Assembly: GCA_963800285.1 (NCBI GenBank)
Contig: CAWDAL010000013.1
Span: 227,395 to 291,394, forward strand
Length of the DNA stretch: 64,000 nucleotides
Reading direction: 5' to 3'
DNA from: an uncultured Solirubrobacterales bacterium
GTDB lineage: Bacteria > Actinomycetota > Thermoleophilia > Solirubrobacterales > 70-9
Position 1 is the first letter of the stretch. Every line of letters starts with the position of its first letter. This document shows, one piece after another, positions 5,353 through 34,388 of this stretch. A model generated the notes under the pieces. The model searched no databases. It saw only the letters and a list, made by a program, of their open reading frames with translations, and had not been told where the DNA came from. The translations under genes were made by a program, and so were the position numbers.

Positions 5353-7266
5353 TCACCCTCGCCGCGCTCGACCTTGTAGGGCTCCGAGCGGTTCCAGTCG
5401 ATGAAGAAGAGGAGGTTGTCGGCGCTGAACTCGACCGGGAGCTTCAGGTCCGAGATCAGCTCCTCGAACTGGTCGAAGCCGGTGCGATCGACGAAGGAGT
5501 TGAAGTCCTCGCCGTCTTTGCGCTTCTCCTCGTAGTTCCGGATCCAGCGCTCGACCGCCTCGGGAACGCGCTTCGCCGGCAGCCGTGCCTTCAGCCGGTG
5601 GCCGAAGACGACGTCGCCGCCCTCGAAGTTGCCTGCGATGTGAGGGATGTATGCGGGAATGGTGTGCTCGCCGACCTTGATGGAGGCCCCATAGAAGCCG
5701 ATCGTGGCGATGTGGTGCTGTGAGCAGCCGTTGGGGCAGCCGCTCATCTTGATGTGGATCTGCTTGGTGAGCGGGTCGGTGATCTCCATCTCCTCGAGCC
5801 GCTTCTGGAGCTCGGCGTTCAGGCCCATCGAGGCGGTGATGCCGAGCTTGCAGCTGTCGGTGCCGGGGCAGCTGACCACGTCGGTGATGCCGAAGGCACC
5901 GGAATCGCCGAGGCCGAGGTCCTTCAGCCGGACCCAGATGTCGTAGAGGGACTCACGCCGGATCCAGCGCAGGACGACGTTCTGCTGGACCGTGGTGCGG
6001 GCGTAGCCGCCGGTGAAGTCACGCATGATCTGGGCCAGGCCCCGGAACTGCTCCGGGGTGAGGTCGCCGCGGGTGACCTTGACGGTCGCGGTGACGAAGC
6101 CCTCCTGGCGCTGAGGGCCGACGTTGGAGTCGACCCAGGCGTCGAACTCGGACCTGTCGCCGTTCGGAGAGCCGTAGCTCTCCGGCACGGCCGGGGCGTT
6201 GGCCTCCTCGTCATGGACGAAGAGCAGGTGGTCGATGCAGAAGTCGCGCTCGTCGACCCAGTCGCCGCGGAGCTCCTCGTCGACCAGCTCGCGGAAGGCG
6301 TCCATGCCGATCTTGTCGACCAGCACCTTGATCCGGGCGCGCATGCGGTTCTCGCGCAGCCACTCCTGGCGATCGAAGATGCGCAGCGCGGCCTCGGTGA
6401 CCTTCAGGTAGTCGCCGTTGTCGAGCTCGACGAACTCGTAGAGGGTGGGGGCGACGCGGGGCTGGATGGAGGTGCCGCCGCCGATCTTGACCTCGACTCC
6501 GCGCACCTCCCTGCCGTCGACCTCCTTCACCCTTGGGATGAAGCCGACGTCGTGGATCTCGGTGATCGCGCGGTCGGCGTCGCTGGCGCTGAAGGCCGTC
6601 TTCACCTTGCGGGGCATCAGCTGCGTGGTCGGGTGGCGGACGAAGTAGCGCGCGTACGCCGCGGCGTAGGGGCGTGATGTCGAACGGCTCGTCGTCCGCG
6701 ACGCCGGCCCAGGGGTCGCCCGTGACGTTGCGCATCGTGTTGCCGCAGCCCTCTCGCGAGGAGAGCCCGGCCTGGCTGATCTGCCGGATGAACTCCGCGG
6801 CGTCCGCCAGCGGCACGTGGTGGATCTGGATGTTCTGGCGCGTCGTGATGTGGCCCTTGTTGAGCGGCGCCATCTCCTCGACCGCGTCCGCGAAGGCCTC
6901 CATCTGCTCCGGGCTGACGCCGCCGTACGGAAGCTTCACGCGGATCATCTGCACGTCGGGCTGGCGCTGGCCGTAGACGCCCTGCTTGAGGCGGAAGCCG
7001 ATGAACTGCTCCTCGGTCTGCTCGCCTCGCAGGAAGCTGGCGGCCTCGGTGTCGAAGTCGTCGAACTCGCGCTCGAGGATCGGGATCACATGCCCCGGGA
7101 CGTCGTCGTAGACCTCCGGGTTCTCGAGCGAACCGACCTTCCCCTTGCCGTGCTGCTTCTTGCCCGGGTCCTGCTTGAGGGTCGAGGGGTCGGCGAGCTT
7201 CTTGGCCGGCACGGGTGTGCCGTTGGTGGACTTGGCGCCCCTCGCGGGGGCGGAGACAGGCTCCAT
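5340..7266 (-). pseudogene. sir: ferredoxin-type sulfite reductase (NirA/Sir family); frame broken by one extra nucleotide in a G4/C4 run at 6669-6672
   Basis: The N-part ends ...GCGNTMRNVTGDPWAGVADDEPFDITP. The next frame continues YAAAYARYFVRHPTTQLMPRKVKTAFS.... Siroheme/4Fe-4S Cys motifs SCPGTDSCKLG and SGCPNGCSQH are present. ACG CCC C TAC becomes T-P-Y if one C is removed. Confidence 0.85.
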
Positions 7267-26100: not shown

Positions 26101-27150
26101 GTGACTCGTAGGGAGCAAGGCTTTCTCGCGGCGACAGCTGCGATCACAGCGATCGCAGGCGTCCTCCGATACTCCAACGCGACCGCGGTGCTCGCCTTTG
26201 CTGCTGCCACCCTGGCGCTCGCCGGGCTCGCTTGGGTCGTGGCCCTCGCCACGGAGCAGGTCGGCCTTCGCTTCGGTCCCGCGGTCACCGGCTTCATGCA
26301 GTCCACCCTCGGCAACCTGCCCGAGTTCTTCATCGTCCTGTTCGCGCTCGGGTCGGGCGAGGTGGTGGTCGCGCAGACCTCCCTGATCGGCTCGATCTTC
26401 GCCAATGCGCTGCTGGTGCTCGGGCTGGTGATCGTCACGGGGACTCTCCAAGCCGACGGGGGCTGCATGCGCTTCCGGCAGCGGCTGCCGCAGGACACGG
26501 CGACGCTCCTGCTCGTCTCGCTCTTCGTGATCGTGATCATCGGCCTCTCGATCGCCTCCTCGGACAAGGCGAGCCACCACATCGAGGGGCTCTCGAACGT
26601 GGGGGCGATCTGTCTGCTCGTCGTCTACGGGGCGTGGATCTGGGGCTACCTGCGCTCTGACCCGCAGCGCGGCGAGGAGGAGGCCGCACCGCGCCTGTCG
26701 ATGACCTTCGCGGTCGTGCTGCTGGCGATCGCTGGCACCGGCGCCGCCTTCGTCTCGGACTGGTTCATCCACGCCCTCGACCCAGCGGTGGAGTCGCTCG
26801 GCATCTCCAAGGCGTTCGCCGGCCTCGTGATCGTTGCCGTCGCCGGCAACGCGGTCGAGAACTTCACCGGCATCTTCCTCGCGGCGAAGGGCAAGTCGGA
26901 CCTGGCGATCTCGGTGGTGAAGAACTCGGTCGCCCAGATCGCCGCCTTCCTCTTCCCGGCCCTGGTGCTGACCTCGTTGCTCTTCACCACGCACCTGACC
27001 TTCGCGCTCGCGCCGGTCTACATCGGCGCGCTCTTCCTCACCGCGCTCGCGATCTGGCAGATCACCGGGGACGGCGAGGCCCAGATGTTCGAGGGAATCG
27101 CGCTGATCGCGATCTACGTGGTGCTGGCGGCGTTCGCGCTGTACGACTGA
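26101..27150 (+). CDS. cax: Ca2+/H+ antiporter (CaCA/CAX family)
   Basis: Two alpha-repeat motifs (GNLPEFF and GNAVENF), ~11 TM segments, 349 aa. Confidence 0.88.
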   Translation: MTRREQGFLAATAAITAIAGVLRYSNATAVLAFAAATLALAGLAWVVALATEQVGLRFGPAVTGFMQSTLGNLPEFFIVLFALGSGEVVVAQTSLIGSIFANALLVLGLVIVTGTLQADGGCMRFRQRLPQDTATLLLVSLFVIVIIGLSIASSDKASHHIEGLSNVGAICLLVVYGAWIWGYLRSDPQRGEEEAAPRLSMTFAVVLLAIAGTGAAFVSDWFIHALDPAVESLGISKAFAGLVIVAVAGNAVENFTGIFLAAKGKSDLAISVVKNSVAQIAAFLFPALVLTSLLFTTHLTFALAPVYIGALFLTALAIWQITGDGEAQMFEGIALIAIYVVLAAFALYD

Positions 27151-27159
27151 GTTCGCTTA

Positions 27160-28451
27160 CTAGGCCGCGTCCTCCGCCAGGTCGTCCGCGAGCCCCTCGA
27201 CGATCCGCGGGTCGAACTGCTTGCCCGCGTTGCGCCTCAGCTCGGCCAGGGCCTCGTCCTCGGTGAGGGGACGCTGGTTGGGGAGCTTGGCGGTGAGGAC
27301 GACGTACTCGACGCAGACGGCGAGGATGCGGGAGCCGAGGGGGATGCGGTCGCCGGCCAGGCCGTCCGGGTAGCCGCTGCCGTCGTAGTTCTCGTGGCTC
27401 GAGCGGACCAGCTTCGCGACCGGGGCGAGGGCCGGGGCCGAGGCGATGATCTCGGCGGCGGCGCCGGGGAGGTCACGGAGCAGGATGGACTCGGAGGCCG
27501 GGAGATGGCTCTGGCTCTCGATGGCCGAGTCGGGGACGGAGAGCATGCCGACGTGCTGGAGGCGGGCGGCGAAGACCAGGTCGTCGAGCTGCTCGCGGCT
27601 CAGCCCCAGGGACCGGCCGAGCGACTGCACGTGGAACGAGACGGCGCGCAGGTGCGAGCCCATCTCGGGGTGGCGCTTGTTGAGGATCGCGAGCAGGGTG
27701 TCGTGGGCCTGGTGCTTCGCCGACTCGCGCTGGTGGCGGCGGTCGGCGGCCAGGCGGCGGCCCGCGATTTGGAGTGCCTCCTCCGCGGTGGTCGCGTCGT
27801 CGGGGAGGATCACGACGCCGTGGGCACGGCCAATCGTCGACTCCGCGCCGGGCTCATCGACGCCGGAGAGGAAGATCGCCATCGCGACCTCGTTCGGATC
27901 GCGCTCATACGCCGGGACGAGGGCGCAGAACTGGCCGCCCTCGATCCGGTAGGGGTGTCCCTCGAGCCCTGCGACGATCTCGGAGAGCTCCTTTCCGAAG
28001 GCGCGCAGGAGCCGGTCGCCGGCTCGGAAGCCGAGGCGGTCGCGGTAGTCGGCGACGCCCTCGAGCTCGAGCAGGACCAGGACCTGCGGCGCGCGTCGGA
28101 GGGCTTGAGGATCTCCTCGAGGTCGTGGCTGAGCTGCAGCCGGTTGGGGAGGCCGGTGGTGGTGTCCACCCGGGCGCGGCGGTGGTTGTTCTGGACGAGC
28201 CAGGTGAAGACTGCTCCGAGGAGAGCGAGGCCGAGCCAGAAGACGAGGTCGGTGACCTCGCCCTGGACGTGGTTGTAGACCAGCAGCGTGGCCGCGAGGC
28301 TGGCGAAGAGCGCGGGGCCGGCGACCGACCACTCGCGCTCGAAGGCGCGCGCCCGCTTCCAGGCGCGGCGCAGGCGAGATGGCCGCTTGTCGCTCGGCCG
28401 GTAGGCGCGGCGGGCCCGCGCGGAGGTTTTCCCAAGCGTGTGGGCTTCCAT
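27160..28451 (-). pseudogene. membrane-anchored degenerate-GGDEF / HD-GYP protein; frame broken by a 1-nt deletion near 28080-28100
   Basis: The N-part has two TM helices and DTTTGLPNRLQL...KPSDAR. It continues in the other frame as QVLVLLELEGVADYRDRLGF...RIEGGQFCAL. The HD-GYP part is HENYDGSGYPDGL. Start could be 28451 or 28508. Confidence 0.75.
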
Positions 28452-28647
28452 TGGTCTAACTATCGGCCGCTCGGCTGGCCCGACTGTCGAGATTGGAAGT
28501 TTGGTCATTCCGCTCGCCTGGCCATGCCTGGACGGCTCACGCCTGGCTCGTTTGATTTCCCCGGAACGGCTGTACGGGGGACTAGTGATCCGCCACGCGG
28601 CGTTCCGTCCGGCGCCGCTGGACCCAGCCCCGTTGAGGGCGAGACGC

Positions 28648-28836
28648 CTAGGGGTTGCCGCGGACATGCGGCTGGTCGTTTGCCGGCCTGTCCGCCGGAT
28701 GCTTCGCGACCAGCGTGGCGTGCCGGCGCGGCGGTGCTGACCGGTGCGGGGAGCCGCCGAACGAGGGGAACATCGAGGCCGCCGCGAGCACGGCCAGGAC
28801 GACCACCAACCAGCGCCGGATCTGGGCCCGGTCCAT
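28648..28836 (-). CDS. possible small membrane protein (very tentative)
   Basis: A 62-aa ORF, MDRAQIRRWLVVVLAVLAAASMFPSF..., with good GC3. No homology recognised. It lies in an otherwise unassigned 425-nt gap. Confidence 0.25.
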   Translation of the reverse strand: MDRAQIRRWLVVVLAVLAAASMFPSFGGSPHRSAPPRRHATLVAKHPADRPANDQPHVRGNP

Positions 28837-28876
28837 TCCGGTTTTCTGCCCGAACGCCCGCGCGTAAACGCTGGCC

Positions 28877-29161
28877 TCAGGAGGAGACGAGCCGACCGAC
28901 GGCGCCCATCAGCTCCTGCACCTGCTCCTCGCTCGCGCCCTTGCCGCCGCGCATGCAGTGGCGGACGTGGTCGTCGACCAGGGCGAGCGCGATCTTGTTG
29001 AGGGCGGCCTGCGCCGCCTCGATCTGGGTGAGGACGTCGATGCAGTAGCGGTCCTCCTCGACCATCCGCTTGACGCCGCCGACCTGGCCCTCGACGCGCG
29101 CCAGCCTCTTGAGCAGGTCGTCCTTCGACGACGTGTATCCGGGAATCTTCGTGTCGCTCAT
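28877..29161 (-). CDS. csoR: CsoR-family metal-sensing transcriptional repressor (Cu(I)-type C-H-C ligand set)
   Basis: LKRLARVEGQVGGVKRMVEEDRYCIDVLTQ...VDDHVRHC, with Cys, His and Cys in CsoR positions, 94 aa. Confidence 0.88.
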   Translation of the reverse strand: MSDTKIPGYTSSKDDLLKRLARVEGQVGGVKRMVEEDRYCIDVLTQIEAAQAALNKIALALVDDHVRHCMRGGKGASEEQVQELMGAVGRLVSS

Positions 29162-29170
29162 GTTCGCAGC

Positions 29171-29187
29171 ATACCCCTATGGGGTAT
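29171..29187. promoter_or_regulatory. candidate CsoR operator ATACCCC-TAT-GGGGTAT
   Basis: Perfect 7-bp arms with C4/G4 tracts in the 37-nt csoR/permease divergent spacer. Known CsoR operators are GC-tract pseudo-palindromes of this style. Confidence 0.65.
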
Positions 29188-29198
29188 AGTCGTCAACC

Positions 29199-30461
29199 AT
29201 GGCGGATGTGATCTCGACGATCGGCGAGGGCTTCAAGCAGTCCTTCCTGATGGGATACGAGGTCTGGTGGGCCCTCGTGCTCGGCTTCGCGATCTCGGCG
29301 ATCGTCCAGGCCTGGGTCCCGCGCGAGAAGGTCGAGTCCGCGCTCTCTGGGAGCGGCTTCCGCCCGCTGGCCAAGGCGACCGGGCTCGGCGCGGCCTCCT
29401 CGTCCTGCTCCTACGCGGCGATCGCGATCGCGAAGTCGCTCTTCCAGAAGGGCGCCTCAGCCGCGACGTCCCTCGCCTTCCAGTTCGCCTCGACCAATCT
29501 GGTCTGGGAGCTCGGCCTGGTCATCTGGATCCTGATCGGCTGGCAGTTCACCCTCGCCGAGTTCGTCGGCGGGGCCGTGCTGATCGCGTTCATGGCGATC
29601 CTGCTCCGCTTCTTCGTCTCGCCGAAGCTCGAGGAGCGGGCCCGCGAGCACGCCCGGCACGCGCAGGTCGACCACCAGCACCACGCGGTCGGGGAGCGGA
29701 TGAGCTGGCGCCAGCGGCTCACCTCCGTCCGGGCCTGGTCCGACGTCGCCCACAACTTCCGCGGCGACTGGCAGATGCTCTGGAAGGAGATCTCGATCGG
29801 GTTCCTGCTCGCCGGCTTCATCGGTCTGCTCGGCGACGACTTCTTCAACGCGCTCTTCATCAAGGACGCGCCGCCGGTCCTGAAGACGCTCGAGAACGTG
29901 ATCGTCGGGCCGATCATCGCCGTACTCAGCTTCGTCTGCTCGGTCGGCAACGCGCCGCTCGCCGCCGTGCTCTGGTCCGGCGGAATCGGCTTCGCCGGCG
30001 TAATCGCGTTCATCTTCGCCGACCTGATCGTCCTGCCGATCGTGGCCGCCTACATCAAGTACTACGGGCGGGAGTACGCGCTGCGGATCACGGCGCTGAT
30101 GTTCGTCACCATCGTGCTCTCGGCGCTCCTGGTCGACCTGCTCTTCGGAGCCGTCGGACTGATCCCCGACACGCGGCCGTCGCGCTCGGACATCTTCGGC
30201 TCGATCGAGCTCGACTACAAGCTCGCCCTCAACGTCCTCGGGCTGATCATCTTCTCGGCCCTCTTCTATCTGACGGCCCGGCGCGGGTCGACCGATCCCG
30301 TCTGCGGGATGAAGGTGGATCGCTCCAAGGCGCTGCAGGCGGTGCACGGCGGGCGCACCTACTACTTCTGCTCCGAGCACTGCCGCTCGCAGTTCGAAGC
30401 CGACCCCGAGGGGTACACGCGGAAGGGAAATGGAAGCCTCCAGCCAGATCCAGTCGCCTGA
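29199..30461 (+). CDS. COG0701/ArsP-like permease fused to a C-terminal YHS/TRASH metal-binding domain
   Basis: Multi-TM permease with conserved SSCSYAA and CSVGNAPLAA segments. C-terminus DPVCGMKVD...YYFCSEHC is the YHS/TRASH signature. Confidence 0.85.
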   Translation: MADVISTIGEGFKQSFLMGYEVWWALVLGFAISAIVQAWVPREKVESALSGSGFRPLAKATGLGAASSSCSYAAIAIAKSLFQKGASAATSLAFQFASTNLVWELGLVIWILIGWQFTLAEFVGGAVLIAFMAILLRFFVSPKLEERAREHARHAQVDHQHHAVGERMSWRQRLTSVRAWSDVAHNFRGDWQMLWKEISIGFLLAGFIGLLGDDFFNALFIKDAPPVLKTLENVIVGPIIAVLSFVCSVGNAPLAAVLWSGGIGFAGVIAFIFADLIVLPIVAAYIKYYGREYALRITALMFVTIVLSALLVDLLFGAVGLIPDTRPSRSDIFGSIELDYKLALNVLGLIIFSALFYLTARRGSTDPVCGMKVDRSKALQAVHGGRTYYFCSEHCRSQFEADPEGYTRKGNGSLQPDPVA

Positions 30462-30906
30462 CCGATCGGAGCTGAACGGGCTCGCGATCGCCGCGACGAC
30501 GCACTGCCTGATCGGCTGCGCGATCGGCGAGGTCTTGGGGATGGCGATTGCGACCGCGTTCGGCTGGGGCAATTTCCCGCAGGTGGTCCTGGCGGTCGGG
30601 CTCGCGTACGTCTTCGGCTTCGGTCTGACCTCGCTGCCGCTGATCCGCGCCCGGCTCGCACCGCGCACGATCGTCTCGACCGCGCTCGCCGCCGACACCG
30701 TCTCGATCACGATCATGGAGCTGATCGACAACCTCACCGTGATCCTGATCCCGAGCGCCCTCGCGGCCGGCCTCGGCGACCCGCTCTTCTACGGCAGCAT
30801 CGCCGCCGGCTTCGCGATCGCCTATCCGTTCGCCTTCCTCGCCAACCGGTACCTGATCGCGCGCGGCCGCGGTCACGCCGTCGTTCACCAGCACCATGCG
30901 CACTGA
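30430..30906 (+). CDS. DUF4396-like membrane protein with THCxxGCxxGE motif and His-rich C-terminus
   Basis: AATTHCLIGCAIGEVLGM plus 4 TM segments. Ends HAVVHQHHAH. Overlaps the permease gene by 32 nt. Confidence 0.75.
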   Translation: MEASSQIQSPDRSELNGLAIAATTHCLIGCAIGEVLGMAIATAFGWGNFPQVVLAVGLAYVFGFGLTSLPLIRARLAPRTIVSTALAADTVSITIMELIDNLTVILIPSALAAGLGDPLFYGSIAAGFAIAYPFAFLANRYLIARGRGHAVVHQHHAH

Positions 30907-31549
30907 GCCACGCGGGTACCTGCCGGCGCTTCGCTTCCCGGCGCTCACGCGCCTCTACGACCCCGTCGTCGCGCTGACCACCAGGGAGCGGCGGTTCAAG
31001 GAGCTCCTCATCGACCAGGCGGCGCCGGCGCCCGCCCAGCGCATCCTCGACCTCGGCTGCGGGACCGGCACCCTCGCGATTCAGGTCAAGCAGCGGGAGC
31101 CGGACGCCGAGGTGGTCGGCCTCGATGCCGATCCCGAGATGCTGAGCCAGGCCCGCGCCAAGGCGGAGCGGGCGGGGGTTGAGCTGAAGCTCGTCGAGGG
31201 CATGTCCGACAAGCTGCCCTTCGAGGCGGCGAGCTTCGACCGGGTCCTCTCGACTCTCTTCTTCCACCATCTCGATCCGGAGCCGAAGCGCCGGACCGCG
31301 CGAGAGATCGCCCGCGTCCTGCGCAGAGGCGGCGAGCTGCACGTCGCGGACTGGGGGGCGCCCGCCGACCCGCTGATGTCGGCGGCCTTCCTGTCGATCC
31401 GGATGCTCGACGGATTCGAGAACACGGCCGACAACGTCAACGGGGAGCTGCCGCGGATCTTCGAGGAGGCCGGGCTCGAGAACGCGGAGCAGACGGACCG
31501 GCTCCGCACGGTCTTCGGCACGATGGCGCTCTACCGGGCCGAGCGCTGA
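30896..31549 (+). CDS. class I SAM-dependent methyltransferase
   Basis: ILDLGCGTGTL motif I, VVGLDADPEML, and the FDRVLSTLFFHHL pattern. Confidence 0.85.
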   Translation: MRTEPRGYLPALRFPALTRLYDPVVALTTRERRFKELLIDQAAPAPAQRILDLGCGTGTLAIQVKQREPDAEVVGLDADPEMLSQARAKAERAGVELKLVEGMSDKLPFEAASFDRVLSTLFFHHLDPEPKRRTAREIARVLRRGGELHVADWGAPADPLMSAAFLSIRMLDGFENTADNVNGELPRIFEEAGLENAEQTDRLRTVFGTMALYRAER

Positions 31550-31601
31550 TTCCGTGCTGAGCACGGATGCCAGCCGAGACGGCTCGGCCTAGCTTCTACC
31601 C

Positions 31602-31868
31602 ATGAACCTGGCTCTGCTGGTTGCGGACACCTGGGGGATGCACGACAGCGACATCGGAACGGGGTGGTGGATTGTGATGATGCTCGGAATGGTTCTCTTC
31701 TGGGGTCTGGTGATCCTCGGGGTGATCTGGCTGGTCCGCGAGATGGGCAGTCCGCACCACCGCGGAAGCGCACCTGACGATCCGCTCGCAATCCTCGACC
31801 GGCGCTTCGCCGAGGGCGACATCACGGTCAAGGAGTACCAGCAGCGGCGCAAGATCCTCACCGGTTGA
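31602..31868 (+). CDS. SHOCT-domain small membrane protein
   Basis: One TM (WWIVMMLGMVLFWGLVILGVIWLV), then LDRRFAEGDITVKEYQQRRKIL, which is the SHOCT motif. Confidence 0.75.
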   Translation: MNLALLVADTWGMHDSDIGTGWWIVMMLGMVLFWGLVILGVIWLVREMGSPHHRGSAPDDPLAILDRRFAEGDITVKEYQQRRKILTG

Positions 31869-32713
31869 ACGCCGCCGAGTCGAGCACCTTCGTCTTCGCC
31901 GACCTCGCCGGCTTCACCGCGCTGACCGAGGCGCACGGGGATCAGGAGGCGATCGAGATCGCCGTCCGGTTCGCGGATCGCGTCAGGGAGCTGCTGCCGG
32001 ATTACGGGGCCGAGGAGGTCAAGTCGATCGGCGACGAGCTGATGATTCGCGTCGAGGATCCAGTCGGTGCGGTCCGGCTCGGGATACGGATCGTCGACGA
32101 GCTGGCGCTTCATGGCTCACCGCCGGTCAGGGTGGGCATGCACTCGGGGTGGGCCACCCCGCTGGGTGGCGACTGGTACGGCGCCACCGTCAACCTCGCC
32201 TCGCGCGTCGTGGACGCCGCGCGGCCGGGGGAGGTGCTGATCACGGCGGAGACCCGGCGAGAGGTGCAGGATCGTGACGGGTTCGAGATCGAGGAGCGGG
32301 GCACGCGCCGTTTCAAGCACGTCGTCGAGCCGATCCCGGTCTTCGAGGCGCTGGCCGCCGGCGGCCGGACGAGACGCCTCGAGATCGACCCCGTCTGCCG
32401 CATGGCCGTGGACCCGAGCCGGGCCGCCTCGAGCAGGCGCCGGCTCGGCCTCTCCTACTACTTCTGCTCCGCGGATTGCCGGGAGAAATTCGATGCCGCT
32501 CCGAAGAGCTACATCGCCACGACCGCCGGGGCGCGGGCGGCGCGCATGGGGTTCCTGATCAACCTCTCCGCCTTCGTGGTCGTCGGCGGCGTGCACCTGA
32601 TCTCCTGGGCGGCACGCGGCTTCACCGCGGATTCGCCGGGGATGTTCGTGCTCTTCTCCATATGGGCCGCGGCGCTGGTCTTCCACTACCGCACGGTCCG
32701 CGGGGTCCTCTGA
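31865..32713 (+). CDS. class III adenylate/guanylate cyclase domain fused to a YHS/TRASH domain and a C-terminal 2-TM module
   Basis: FVFADLAGFT and KSIGDELM (metal Asp residues). GATVNLASRV (Asn/Arg). Then DPVCRMAVD...YYFCSADC. Then two hydrophobic helices. The TTG start overlaps the SHOCT stop. Confidence 0.8.
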   Translation: MNAAESSTFVFADLAGFTALTEAHGDQEAIEIAVRFADRVRELLPDYGAEEVKSIGDELMIRVEDPVGAVRLGIRIVDELALHGSPPVRVGMHSGWATPLGGDWYGATVNLASRVVDAARPGEVLITAETRREVQDRDGFEIEERGTRRFKHVVEPIPVFEALAAGGRTRRLEIDPVCRMAVDPSRAASSRRRLGLSYYFCSADCREKFDAAPKSYIATTAGARAARMGFLINLSAFVVVGGVHLISWAARGFTADSPGMFVLFSIWAAALVFHYRTVRGVL

Positions 32714-32739
32714 CCGCGAGGCGCGCAGGCGTAGAGAAC

Positions 32740-32793
32740 GGCGCCCCCGAGCGCCGGGCCCGAACCGGGACGGGCCCGGCGCTCCGAGGCGCC
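32740..32793. terminator. strong GC hairpin between convergent genes (candidate bidirectional terminator)
   Basis: GAGCGCCGGGCCC (32749-32761) pairs with GGGCCCGGCGCTC (32772-32784) as a 13-bp perfect stem around a 10-nt loop. It is extended by outer GGCGCC/GGCGCC arms. No U-tract. Confidence 0.55.
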
Positions 32794-32827
32794 GCCCTAT
32801 ACGGCTACCCCGCAGTTCTCATTCTTA

Positions 32828-33448
32828 CTACTCGAGCGAGAAGGGCGGGTACCTGTCGGTGACGAGGAGGAACGCGTAGGCCGCGACCCGCAGCGCCCAG
32901 CGCTGTACGCCCATGACGAAGTCGAACAGCGACCGCGGATACCGCCCCGTGAACAGGATCGCGAACCAGGCGAAGATCACGGCGAAGAACGCTCCGATCG
33001 CCAGGAAGAACAGCACGATGTAGTGCGGGATCGCCAGGAACCACTTGATCAGCGGCATCCCGCGCGAGAGATCGGTCTCGACGTTCGGGTACTCGATCTC
33101 CAGCCGGACCCACTGCTCTTCGTCCGTTGACGGGTACTGGTCGTTCATCAGCACCATGTAGGTGTGGACTCGGGCGAAGAAGCGGACCAGTTCCCGGTTC
33201 CAGTCGAACCACCAGCGCGGGTACTTCTGCCGGAACAGGATCATCAGCAGCGGACCCAGCACCAGGACCCCGCCGGCGCCGGCGTAGGTCGCCTCGTTGT
33301 TGCCCCAGCCCCCGAACACGTAGTGGTTCACGGTCGCGAGCACGATCGCAATCGGGATCACCGCGAAGATCCGGAAGAACGTGCTCAATCGGTTGAGCTC
33401 GCGGTCCGGGTACTCCACCGAGTACGTCAGGGGATAGCTCTCGTCCAT
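32828..33448 (-). CDS. DUF4389-like membrane protein
   Basis: LSTFFRIFAVIPIAIVL...IKWFLAIPHYIVLFFL...AWFAILFTGRYP pattern characteristic of DUF4389. Confidence 0.8.
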   Translation of the reverse strand: MDESYPLTYSVEYPDRELNRLSTFFRIFAVIPIAIVLATVNHYVFGGWGNNEATYAGAGGVLVLGPLLMILFRQKYPRWWFDWNRELVRFFARVHTYMVLMNDQYPSTDEEQWVRLEIEYPNVETDLSRGMPLIKWFLAIPHYIVLFFLAIGAFFAVIFAWFAILFTGRYPRSLFDFVMGVQRWALRVAAYAFLLVTDRYPPFSLE

Positions 33449-33533
33449 TTCTCTCTCCCTCGTTGGTTTGCCGTCCCACGGAGGACCGTACGCCCGCCGC
33501 CGGACCGCGCCGCAGGATCGCCATCATCCGGGT

Positions 33534-34388
33534 ATGGCCCACCGGATCACCTGGCTCGACGTCTTCGCCGAGCGCCCCCTCGCGGGGAATGGGCTGGCCG
33601 TGGTCGACGACGCCGACGGCGTCAGCGACGAGACCATGCTCGCCCTCGCGCAGGAGACGCGACTCTCCGAGACCACCTTCGTGCAGTCCGCCACGGCCGA
33701 TGGCGCCGACTACCGCAACCGGATCTGGGACCCGCACGAGGAGCTTCCCTTCGCGGGCCACCCCTCCCTGGGGACCGCAGTGGCCGTCGCGCGCTGGCGC
33801 GGTCTCGACGAGGCGAGCTTCGTGCAGGAGACCGGCGCCGGGCTGCAGCCGATCGACGTCCGCAAGCCGAACGGGCGCTGGGAGGCGTCGATGCTCCAGA
33901 ACGAGGCGGAGTTCGGCCAGGAGCTGGAGCGTGACGCGGTCATGGCGGCCGTCGGGTTGCGGGCCGAGGACGCGCACCCCGAGCTGCCACCTCAGGTCGT
34001 CTCCACGGGGATGCCCCACGTGATGGCGCCCGTCGCGGAGCATCAGGCCCTGGCCCGCGCGCTGCCCGACTACTCGACGATCTTCGAGCTCTCGGAGCCG
34101 CACGGCTCGATCGTCATCTACCTAGCCTGGCTCGACCCGGACGGTGAGACGGTTCGCGCGCGCTCCTTCACGCGCACGGCGGAGATGGGGGAGGACCCGG
34201 CGACCGGGTCAGCGGCCGGGCCGCTCGGCGCCTACCTGCACCAGCGCACGGACCGCGAGCGGCTGCGGATCCGCCAGGGGGAGGAGATGGGTCGCCCGAG
34301 CGTGCTCGAGGTCGAGATGACCGACGGCCGGCCGCGGGTCTCCGGCGGCGTGATCCCGGTGATCGACGGAGAGGTCAGCCTGCCTTAG
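33534..34388 (+). CDS. PhzF family isomerase-like protein
   Basis: WLDVFAERPLAGNGLAVV...LSETTFV...ELPFAGHPSLG motifs. ATG at 33534 chosen from the conserved N-terminus. Confidence 0.85.
   Translation: MAHRITWLDVFAERPLAGNGLAVVDDADGVSDETMLALAQETRLSETTFVQSATADGADYRNRIWDPHEELPFAGHPSLGTAVAVARWRGLDEASFVQETGAGLQPIDVRKPNGRWEASMLQNEAEFGQELERDAVMAAVGLRAEDAHPELPPQVVSTGMPHVMAPVAEHQALARALPDYSTIFELSEPHGSIVIYLAWLDPDGETVRARSFTRTAEMGEDPATGSAAGPLGAYLHQRTDRERLRIRQGEEMGRPSVLEVEMTDGRPRVSGGVIPVIDGEVSLP

Follow-up and report, generated by a model that had tools for sequence, protein, structure and literature searches.

What does a CsoR-type repressor control at a locus that carries neither CopA nor CopZ? Bacterial copper efflux is usually taught as the work of CopA and CopZ, together with Cus systems or multicopper oxidases, and the question is raised here by a csoR gene and the operon divergent from it in a 64,000-nucleotide (nt) window (the whole stretch of DNA analysed, with 69% GC) from a Solirubrobacterales soil actinobacterium. 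The operon encodes a permease that ends in a YHS domain, a DUF4396 membrane protein, and a methyltransferase dependent on S-adenosylmethionine (SAM). We consider it probable, with real room for doubt, that this is a Cu(I)-derepressed copper-stress operon in which the permease exports Cu(I) by secondary transport and DUF4396 is its copper-binding partner in the membrane. Sequence comparison strongly supports the regulatory half of this proposal; that copper is the substrate and export the direction of transport is what the homologues and their gene neighbourhoods suggest. The genes and control elements concerned are the following.

28877-29161, minus strand: csoR, a CsoR/RcnR-family repressor of 94 amino acids (aa) (Pfam PF02583, Trns_repr_metal, 9e-29)
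29163-29196, no strand: two face-to-face sigma-70-like promoter matches (consensus scan)
29171-29187, no strand: predicted CsoR operator, a 7-3-7 inverted repeat forming the perfect palindrome ATACCCCTATGGGGTAT
29199-30461, plus strand: permease-YHS, 420 aa (ArsP_1, 6e-57; YHS, 1e-13, residues 365-407)
30430-30906, plus strand: DUF4396, a membrane protein with four transmembrane (TM) segments (Pfam PF14342, 3e-30)
30896-31549, plus strand: class I SAM-dependent methyltransferase, 217 aa (Methyltransf_25, 2e-26)

The csoR gene is divergent from the permease-DUF4396-methyltransferase operon across a gap of 37 nt (29162-29198). Within the operon, the permease and DUF4396 reading frames overlap by 32 nt, with a Shine-Dalgarno-like GGAAGGGAA just ahead of the DUF4396 ATG, and the DUF4396 and methyltransferase frames overlap by 11 nt, the methyltransferase ATG lying over the DUF4396 stop (ATGCGCACTGA). 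A sequence-only reading of the same DNA had listed these open reading frames (ORFs), and the translations bear out all of its coordinates, with the domains well above their Pfam gathering scores and the motifs DPVCGMKVD...YYFCSEHC, THCLIGCAIGE and a HQHHAH tail directly readable. Its Cu(I)-type Cys-His-Cys CsoR is supported by the alignment of the ligands to those of solved Cu(I) CsoRs, its COG0701/ArsP-like permease with a C-terminal YHS domain by the ArsP_1 and YHS matches, its DUF4396-like Cys/His membrane protein by Pfam, motif, and four modelled helices, and its SAM methyltransferase overlapping DUF4396 by a class I assignment and the 11-nt overlap. The 37-nt control region with a palindromic operator was likewise recovered, the predicted operator class being conserved among relatives, and gene context and literature support the link that had been drawn between copper and the YHS and DUF4396 parts.

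For comparison we collected relatives of the permease in a scan of one genome per species, which found at least 442; the best 80 of these, at 67-92% identity, were analysed, and 81 loci in all were compared, from Solirubrobacterales, Thermoleophilaceae, Gaiellales, and a few genomes labelled Chloroflexota.

The repressor scores 100.1 bits against PF02583, for which the gathering cutoff is 22.8, and its closest solved relatives are the CsoRs of Streptomyces lividans (4ADZ; 1e-21) and Geobacillus (4M1P). Its ligand set is Y39-C40/H65/C69, with a Cys-His-Cys spacing of 25/4, and C40, H65, and C69 together with the preceding second-shell Tyr align with the YCID...HxRHC (HLRHC) of both structures; the YC...Hx3C set is kept in all 60 of the 60 csoR neighbours of the permease. 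The best NCBIfam match is to RicR (NF052430, an exception model) at 95.2 bits, under the curated cutoff of 175 bits, which rules out that the protein is RicR itself. By these sequence criteria the window regulator is a Cu(I)-type CsoR, related to RicR but distinct from it, and Cu(I) would be its effector.

The palindrome between the divergent genes, ATACCCC-TAT-GGGGTAT, is the sole match to its pattern in the 64 kilobases (kb) even at three mismatches, with 0.01 expected by chance. Two promoter-like sites were found around it, compared with 0.2 expected in shuffled sequence: TTCGCA (29163-29168) and TATAGT (29185-29190), 16 nt apart, on the plus strand, and TTGACG (29196-29191) and TATGCT (29173-29168), 17 nt apart, on the minus strand. 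The palindrome fills the spacers of both, so that one bound repressor would block both, and the start codons of csoR and the permease fall 7-9 nt after the -10 hexamers, which suggests that both mRNAs are probably leaderless. A GC-tract inverted repeat overlapping csoR's own promoter, as required for membership of the Cu(I)-sensing CsoR class, is therefore present. The TATAGTCGTCAA block is kept among close relatives, and the operator core is the same as that of the Mycobacterium tuberculosis ricR promoter site TACCCCGCTGGGTA (PMC3944814) and as that of the site on a Mycolicibacterium plasmid. Among the 50 divergent loci, 42 contain TACCC(C)-N3-5-(G)GGGTA as a strict pattern, about 25-60 nt before the permease start, and most of the others have near-variants of it; the motif also occurs in seven loci where csoR is not adjacent, implying that these are controlled in trans. 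These comparisons support the view that the palindrome is a conserved operator of the CsoR/RicR type. No RNA element was found by Rfam in 27000-34000.

Conservation separates the core of the system from its accessories. A csoR gene lies within 700 base pairs (bp) of the permease in 60 of the 81 loci, divergent in 50 and co-directional upstream in 10, and these data support a conserved unit of csoR, operator, and permease-YHS in about 60 species-level genomes. Adjacent to the permease, DUF4396 is found in 15 of the 81 loci, a methyltransferase in 17, and a cyclase-YHS protein in 8; DUF4396 and the methyltransferase are accessory members. The four-gene module originally described is thus not one conserved unit: its csoR-permease order holds across genomes, and the attachment of the other two genes is in part not conserved. 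In more distant loci (L014, L026, and L066) DUF4396 occurs on either side of csoR, which points to functional linkage rather than simple inheritance. The reported lack of CopA and CopZ was borne out, as none of the 81 loci has a P1B ATPase (DKTGT plus CPC) or a small MxCxxC/CopZ-type ORF within 8 kb, and the 64-kb window contains no P-type ATPase (DKTGT plus CPC) or small MxCxxC protein anywhere. In five loci, L003 and L055 among them, a gene downstream of the permease encodes a cation-diffusion-facilitator-like protein whose N terminus is His-rich; in L003 this gene occupies the slot taken by DUF4396 in the window.

The permease itself matches PF03773 (ArsP_1/COG0701/UPF0718) over residues 19-312 with 193.6 bits, compared with a gathering score of 32.3, and is followed by a YHS domain (PF04945; 51.4 versus 30.3 bits; residues 365-407, nt 30291-30419). 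The candidate YHS ligands, D366, C369, C391, and C395, amount to one Asp and three Cys and are at least 90% conserved, and at least 74 of 81 permease orthologues retain the YHS signature, often with a His-rich end after it. Two Cys motifs lie in the membrane part, GAASSSC70SY and SFVC247SVGN, and in our alignment both are invariant or nearly so across Thermoleophilia, Mycolicibacterium, Paraburkholderia, and haloarchaea, with C70 invariant in all rows and C247 replaced by Gly in the Haloterrigena protein only. In an AlphaFold2 (AF2) model (predicted local distance difference test (pLDDT) 78; predicted template modelling score 0.76), the helices are broken exactly at both motifs. The central loop is His/Arg-rich, and its richness in Arg and Lys, together with the ARRGS sequence ahead of the YHS domain, would place that domain in the cytoplasm under the positive-inside rule. 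A sequence search of the permease against the PDB gave no match, and a search with the modelled fold gave none of significance; the best TM-scores, 0.36-0.43, were to the TRAP transporter SiaQM and to VcINDY, both elevators, at E > 0.1, a level at which a transporter superfamily cannot be claimed. Some Thermoleophilia-type permease homologues of 476-507 aa carry an additional PF24273 TRASH match.

The case for copper export draws on homologues and relatives of this permease in other settings. Plasmid-borne homologues of 36-46% identity occur in haloarchaea, Paraburkholderia, Mycolicibacterium, Streptomyces, and others, and the metal-binding appendages are interchangeable: the Thermoleophilia proteins have YHS, those of Mycolicibacterium and Paraburkholderia have His-rich tails, and that of Haloterrigena has a second, TRASH-like insert within its central loop. 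The Paraburkholderia homologue sits in a cluster with a CopRS-like two-component system, a heavy-metal-associated (HMA) protein, and DUF305. On the plasmid pJCM15296 of Mycolicibacterium aubagnense, ATATACCCCAATGGGGTATAT lies between a multicopper oxidase and the divergent permease (L165:3843-4001); this permease is 43% identical to that of the window and has a His-rich tail and no YHS domain, and a P-type ATPase lies 3.4 kb away in the same island. Further support comes from ArsP/DUF318 relatives that are genetically tied to copper and zinc tolerance (PMC3219624, bioRxiv 10.1101/072470): mutants in SO_0444 and Shew_3410 of Shewanella, both under ZntR, are Cu/Zn sensitive, and a Nitratiruptor homologue is induced by Cd and Cu. 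Lastly, YHS is known as a copper sensor module, given that a cyclase-YHS protein of Mycobacterium phlei is switched on by 1-10 µM copper, with one Asp and three Cys as the proposed ligands (PMC4626032).

Some details of these homologues stand apart from this argument. In the Haloterrigena plasmid pHTUR01 the permease (L167:3995-5395) has a YHS/TRASH domain at its C terminus and another within the central loop, and the homologues P0400, P0401, P0402, P0421, P0439, and P0442 are among those that also have two. In the Paraburkholderia fungorum plasmid (L166) a GDCCVxC (seleno)protein (6959-7156) and a class I methyltransferase (6292-6906) lie downstream of permease-DUF305, and the CopRS/HMA cluster is flanked by IS21.

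The closest parallel is the RicR regulon of M. tuberculosis, in which RicR, a paralogue of CsoR, controls the putative permease Rv2963 along with ricR, lpqS, mymT, socAB, and the multicopper oxidase mmcO through sites of the TACCCCGCTGGGTA type (PMC3944814). Like the window, it has a unit without CopA in which a TACCC-N-GGGTA palindrome would place a permease under a repressor of the CsoR kind (PMC3944814). The two differ in that the window unit is a compact divergent pair throughout Thermoleophilia with DUF4396 attached, in that the RicR regulon has been described as confined to pathogenic mycobacteria, and in that the mycobacterial permease, judged from the plasmid homologue, ends in a His-rich tail whereas that of the window ends in YHS. 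By analogy, the M. aubagnense island can be regarded as plasmid-borne and RicR-regulon-like, and through its permease Rv2963 would be homologous to the window permease. The SO_0444/SaoE proteins belong to the same Pfam superfamily, are secondary transporters beside a metal sensor (ZntR) with a role in Cu/Zn tolerance in Shewanella, and carry Cys in a motif at the corresponding position; in contrast, the window permease has SCS in that motif, a YHS fusion, and a CsoR-type regulator instead of one of the MerR type. With csoR-copZ-copA operons (M. tuberculosis cso, Bacillus subtilis copZA, S. lividans, and Kineococcus pKRAD01) the locus shares repressor family, ligand set, and operator type, and DUF4396 is the last gene in Kineococcus and in many metagenome loci, but at loci of the window type the permease takes the position of CopA.

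DUF4396 provides a second line of evidence. The window protein scores 105.8 bits against PF14342, for which the gathering score is 27, and the family comprises 1,826 clusters at E <= 1e-3 among representatives at 50% identity. In an alignment of 37 diverse members the conserved residues are H25-C26-x3-C30-x3-E34 in TM1, D89, M96, E97, D100, and N101 in TM3, N139 in TM4, and G-H149-x3-H153 in the C-terminal tail. The AF2 model (pLDDT 90) consists of four long helices, and a search of this fold against the PDB gave no significant match. We examined gene context in 80 metagenomic loci at 50-82% identity (316 kb in total, with many contigs of only 1-2 kb) and found csoR within 700 bp of DUF4396 in 20, copA in 13, and DUF305 in 7. 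In 30 of the 80 there is a CsoR-type palindrome no more than 1.5 kb away, mostly 16-111 nt before the DUF4396 start, and the whole 316 kb has only 37 occurrences of the pattern; counting operator, csoR, copA, or permease together, 48 of the 80 loci have at least one beside DUF4396. The gene either stands alone behind an operator of its own or follows copA-csoR or the permease; nine of the loci share the order copA-csoR-DUF4396, and in three a cyclase-YHS gene adjoins DUF4396. Kineococcus pKRAD01 has the order DUF305-csoR-copZ-copA-DUF4396, and on a plasmid of the haloarchaeon Halomarina the gene adjoins a P-type ATPase and an HMA protein, whereas the DUF4396 locus of a Streptomyces tendae plasmid has no annotated copper genes. 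These contexts suggest a role for DUF4396 in copper handling. One representative (P0275) has an N-terminal HMA-like domain with MSCGHC; apparent fusions to DJ-1, aldo-keto reductase, and AMP-binding domains look like gene-call artefacts. A homology between DUF4396 and Rv0970 is a lead, taken from the position of Rv0970 after ctpV only.

In the mechanism that we propose, CsoR would sit on the palindrome at 29171-29187 in the absence of copper and shut off csoR and the operon together, and binding of Cu(I) by C40/H65'/C69 would release the repressor so that both transcripts are made. The permease would then act as an ATP-independent secondary transporter that moves Cu(I) out of the cytoplasm, with its two half-repeats each putting a conserved Cys (C70 and C247) at a membrane-helix break to form a thiophilic site, and with the cytoplasmic YHS domain (Asp plus three Cys) and the His-rich loop capturing or sensing Cu(I). 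DUF4396, through its intramembrane cluster of His-Cys-Cys-Glu and Asp-Met-Glu-Asp-Asn and its cytoplasmic His tail, may be a copper-binding partner or a second conduit, and in other bacteria it would serve CopA-based systems. The methyltransferase would be a loosely attached passenger, and the downstream cyclase-YHS protein may add copper-dependent cyclic AMP signalling in some strains.

Several points weigh against this proposal or limit its reach. The promoter hexamers match the consensus at 9 of 12 positions only, and the absence of CopA holds at the scale of the window and the locus, so that a genome-wide claim that the unit replaces CopA lies beyond that scope. The permease has S-C70-S instead of the CSC motif of the ArsP/SO_0444/SaoE group (bioRxiv 10.1101/2022.07.06.499078) and scores far under the equivalog cutoffs for the SO_0444 and SaoE efflux families (50.4 versus 300 and 47.2 versus 325 bits), and membership of the ArsP, SO_0444, or SaoE subfamily is rejected on both grounds. 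Regulation is also not uniform, as an ArsR/SmtB regulator (ELCVCDL) stands directly upstream of the permease and replaces csoR in L035, L048, and L080, its stop overlapping the permease start in the first two, and L063 is probably arranged likewise, judging from its matching upstream sequence. These orthologues, at 67-73% identity, suggest that the transporter may accept thiophilic metals or metalloids more broadly; of the secondary-transport copper system first proposed from sequence, the Cu(I)-type CsoR control therefore stands, and a copper specificity of the transporter is still putative. To our knowledge, no experiment has been reported on any member of this exact permease subfamily. Finally, an Rv2963 mutant of M. 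tuberculosis has no clear copper phenotype and is, if anything, slightly more copper resistant (PMC3944814), which makes a poor fit to a simple exporter.

The slightly raised resistance of that mutant, which carries a transposon, would be easier to understand if the operon were regulated by CsoR and copper and the permease imported or redistributed copper, whether for cuproenzymes or into a periplasmic sink, or carried a copper-complexing small molecule, with DUF4396 as the recipient. The direction of transport is not fixed by any solved structure, and the permease family is without a biochemical copper transport assay. We nevertheless consider this an unlikely, if live, alternative, given that derepressing an importer at high Cu(I) would be counter-productive, that Cu/Zn tolerance depends on related members of the family, and that the neighbours of the homologues (CopRS, HMA, DUF305, multicopper oxidase, and P-type ATPase) are resistance genes.

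The ArsR-type regulators lend themselves to another explanation, in which an ArsP-like permease expels a thiophilic metalloid or an organometal (species of As, Sb, Hg, Ag, or Cd), the methyltransferase supplies it in methylated form, and this lineage has rewired the operon to CsoR. The Pfam family is named after ArsP, at least three orthologues and probably a fourth follow such a regulator, a methyltransferase comes after the permease in 17 of the 81 loci, a class I methyltransferase is also found near the Paraburkholderia homologue, and that of the window has weak NCBIfam matches of the ArsM type. We judge this quite unlikely. The Pfam and NCBIfam matches of the methyltransferase are all generic and under equivalog cutoffs, its PDB relatives are generic methyltransferases, and it has a single Cys, which lies in the SAM motif; its identification as ArsM fails on that Cys count and on scores of 52-56 bits against ArsM cutoffs of 263-575 (51.6 versus 263 for NF008823, and 55.9 versus 510). 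The Paraburkholderia enzyme is only 26% identical to it over 124 residues, a level that reflects the generic fold and on which orthology was rejected. In L001, a near-identical ENA contig that carries the same region and is otherwise 97-100% identical at the protein level, the gene is split by a frameshift into ORFs of 82 and 174 aa (L001:11698-12437), which reflects either an assembly error or the decay of a gene that can be dispensed with, and the methyltransferase is possibly a dispensable accessory. The permease moreover lacks the CSC motif, a Cu(I)-type CsoR is present in 60 of the 81 loci, and clustering of the ORFs of these loci gave no recurring arsenic-type gene besides a flavin-reductase-like ORF in L035 and L048. 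This ORF, which resembles NADPH-dependent FMN reductases, is convergent and lies downstream of the permease in both.

That the CsoR-family protein instead senses a signal other than copper (nickel or cobalt as in RcnR/InrS, persulfide as in CstR, or aldehyde as in FrmR) and that the operon handles the corresponding stress is very unlikely, since for all the functional diversity of the family, and with InrS (5FMN) and FrmR among the PDB and NCBIfam matches, genuine Cu(I) CsoRs rank first and align with the protein at the Cys-His-Cys ligands and the Tyr before them, the protein has no N-terminal His of the RcnR/InrS kind and, unlike CstR, has His65, its operator belongs to the GC-tract class of RicR/CsoR sites, and the partner genes all indicate copper.

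Copper export under CsoR control also admits a wider formulation, which we offer tentatively and with less conviction than doubt: that DUF4396 is a widespread and hitherto unstudied membrane protein that handles copper and belongs to the core of CsoR regulons, and that in Thermoleophilia the permease-YHS/DUF4396 pair is an ATP-independent route of Cu(I) export that replaces CopA/CopZ at the locus.

The sequence-only reading had described the system as one not known to be characterised, and here precedents exist, in RicR and Rv2963 (PMC3944814) and in the Cu/Zn tolerance of ArsP/DUF318 relatives (PMC3219624, bioRxiv 10.1101/072470). A CsoR-family repressor over a permease, as in the RicR regulon, and ArsP/DUF318 relatives with Cu/Zn tolerance are already known; the YHS fusion, the compact divergent unit of Thermoleophilia without nearby CopA/CopZ, the attachment of DUF4396 to this unit, and the broad linkage of DUF4396 to CsoR and CopA are new. 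The literature that we searched held no description combining CsoR, YHS, and permease, and it mentioned DUF4396 in a single paper, only as the flank of a metal island; the link between DUF4396 and copper control appears to be unreported before. If the proposal is correct, a secondary transporter unit under CsoR would constitute a second cytoplasmic route of copper export, and would allow the still unexplained Rv2963 of M. tuberculosis, which RicR regulates, to be modelled in a tractable organism that is not a pathogen. The most useful by-product is that DUF4396 gains a testable role in copper, drawn from 48 of 80 independent metagenomic loci.

Two further genes follow the operon.

31602-31868, plus strand: small SHOCT-domain protein with a single TM segment (Pfam SHOCT, 4e-6)
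31865-32713, plus strand: fusion of adenylyl cyclase, YHS, and a membrane segment (Guanylate_cyc, 4e-14; YHS, 7e-10)

The SHOCT gene is co-directional with the methyltransferase and begins 52 nt after it, and together with the cyclase gene it accounts for a presence/absence difference of 1.2 kb from L001. The cyclase fusion has Guanylate_cyc at residues 4-148, YHS at residues 174-217 (DPVCRM...YYFCSADC), and a C-terminal membrane segment. The architecture looked for in an enzyme of the M. phlei type, a class III cyclase and then YHS, is found at 31865-32713, and by analogy with that enzyme this is probably a copper-responsive cyclase; it differs from the M. phlei protein in its extra C-terminal membrane segment. 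The Asp plus three Cys signature is common to the M. phlei YHS, the YHS of this cyclase, and the YHS tail of the permease. Directly 3' of the methyltransferase stop, two GC-rich hairpins (31551-31590; TCCGTGC-TGA-GCACGGA and GCCGAG-ACGG-CTCGGC) have no T-run after them and sit at the left edge of the SHOCT/cyclase insertion or deletion. Upstream of csoR, 27160-28332 on the minus strand encodes a GGDEF and HD-GYP (HD_5) signalling protein whose position is conserved in the closest relatives, where a Na/Ca exchanger family protein (26101-27150) is also conserved with it; with GGDEF/HD-GYP on one side and cyclase-YHS on the other, the neighbourhood is rich in second-messenger enzymes.

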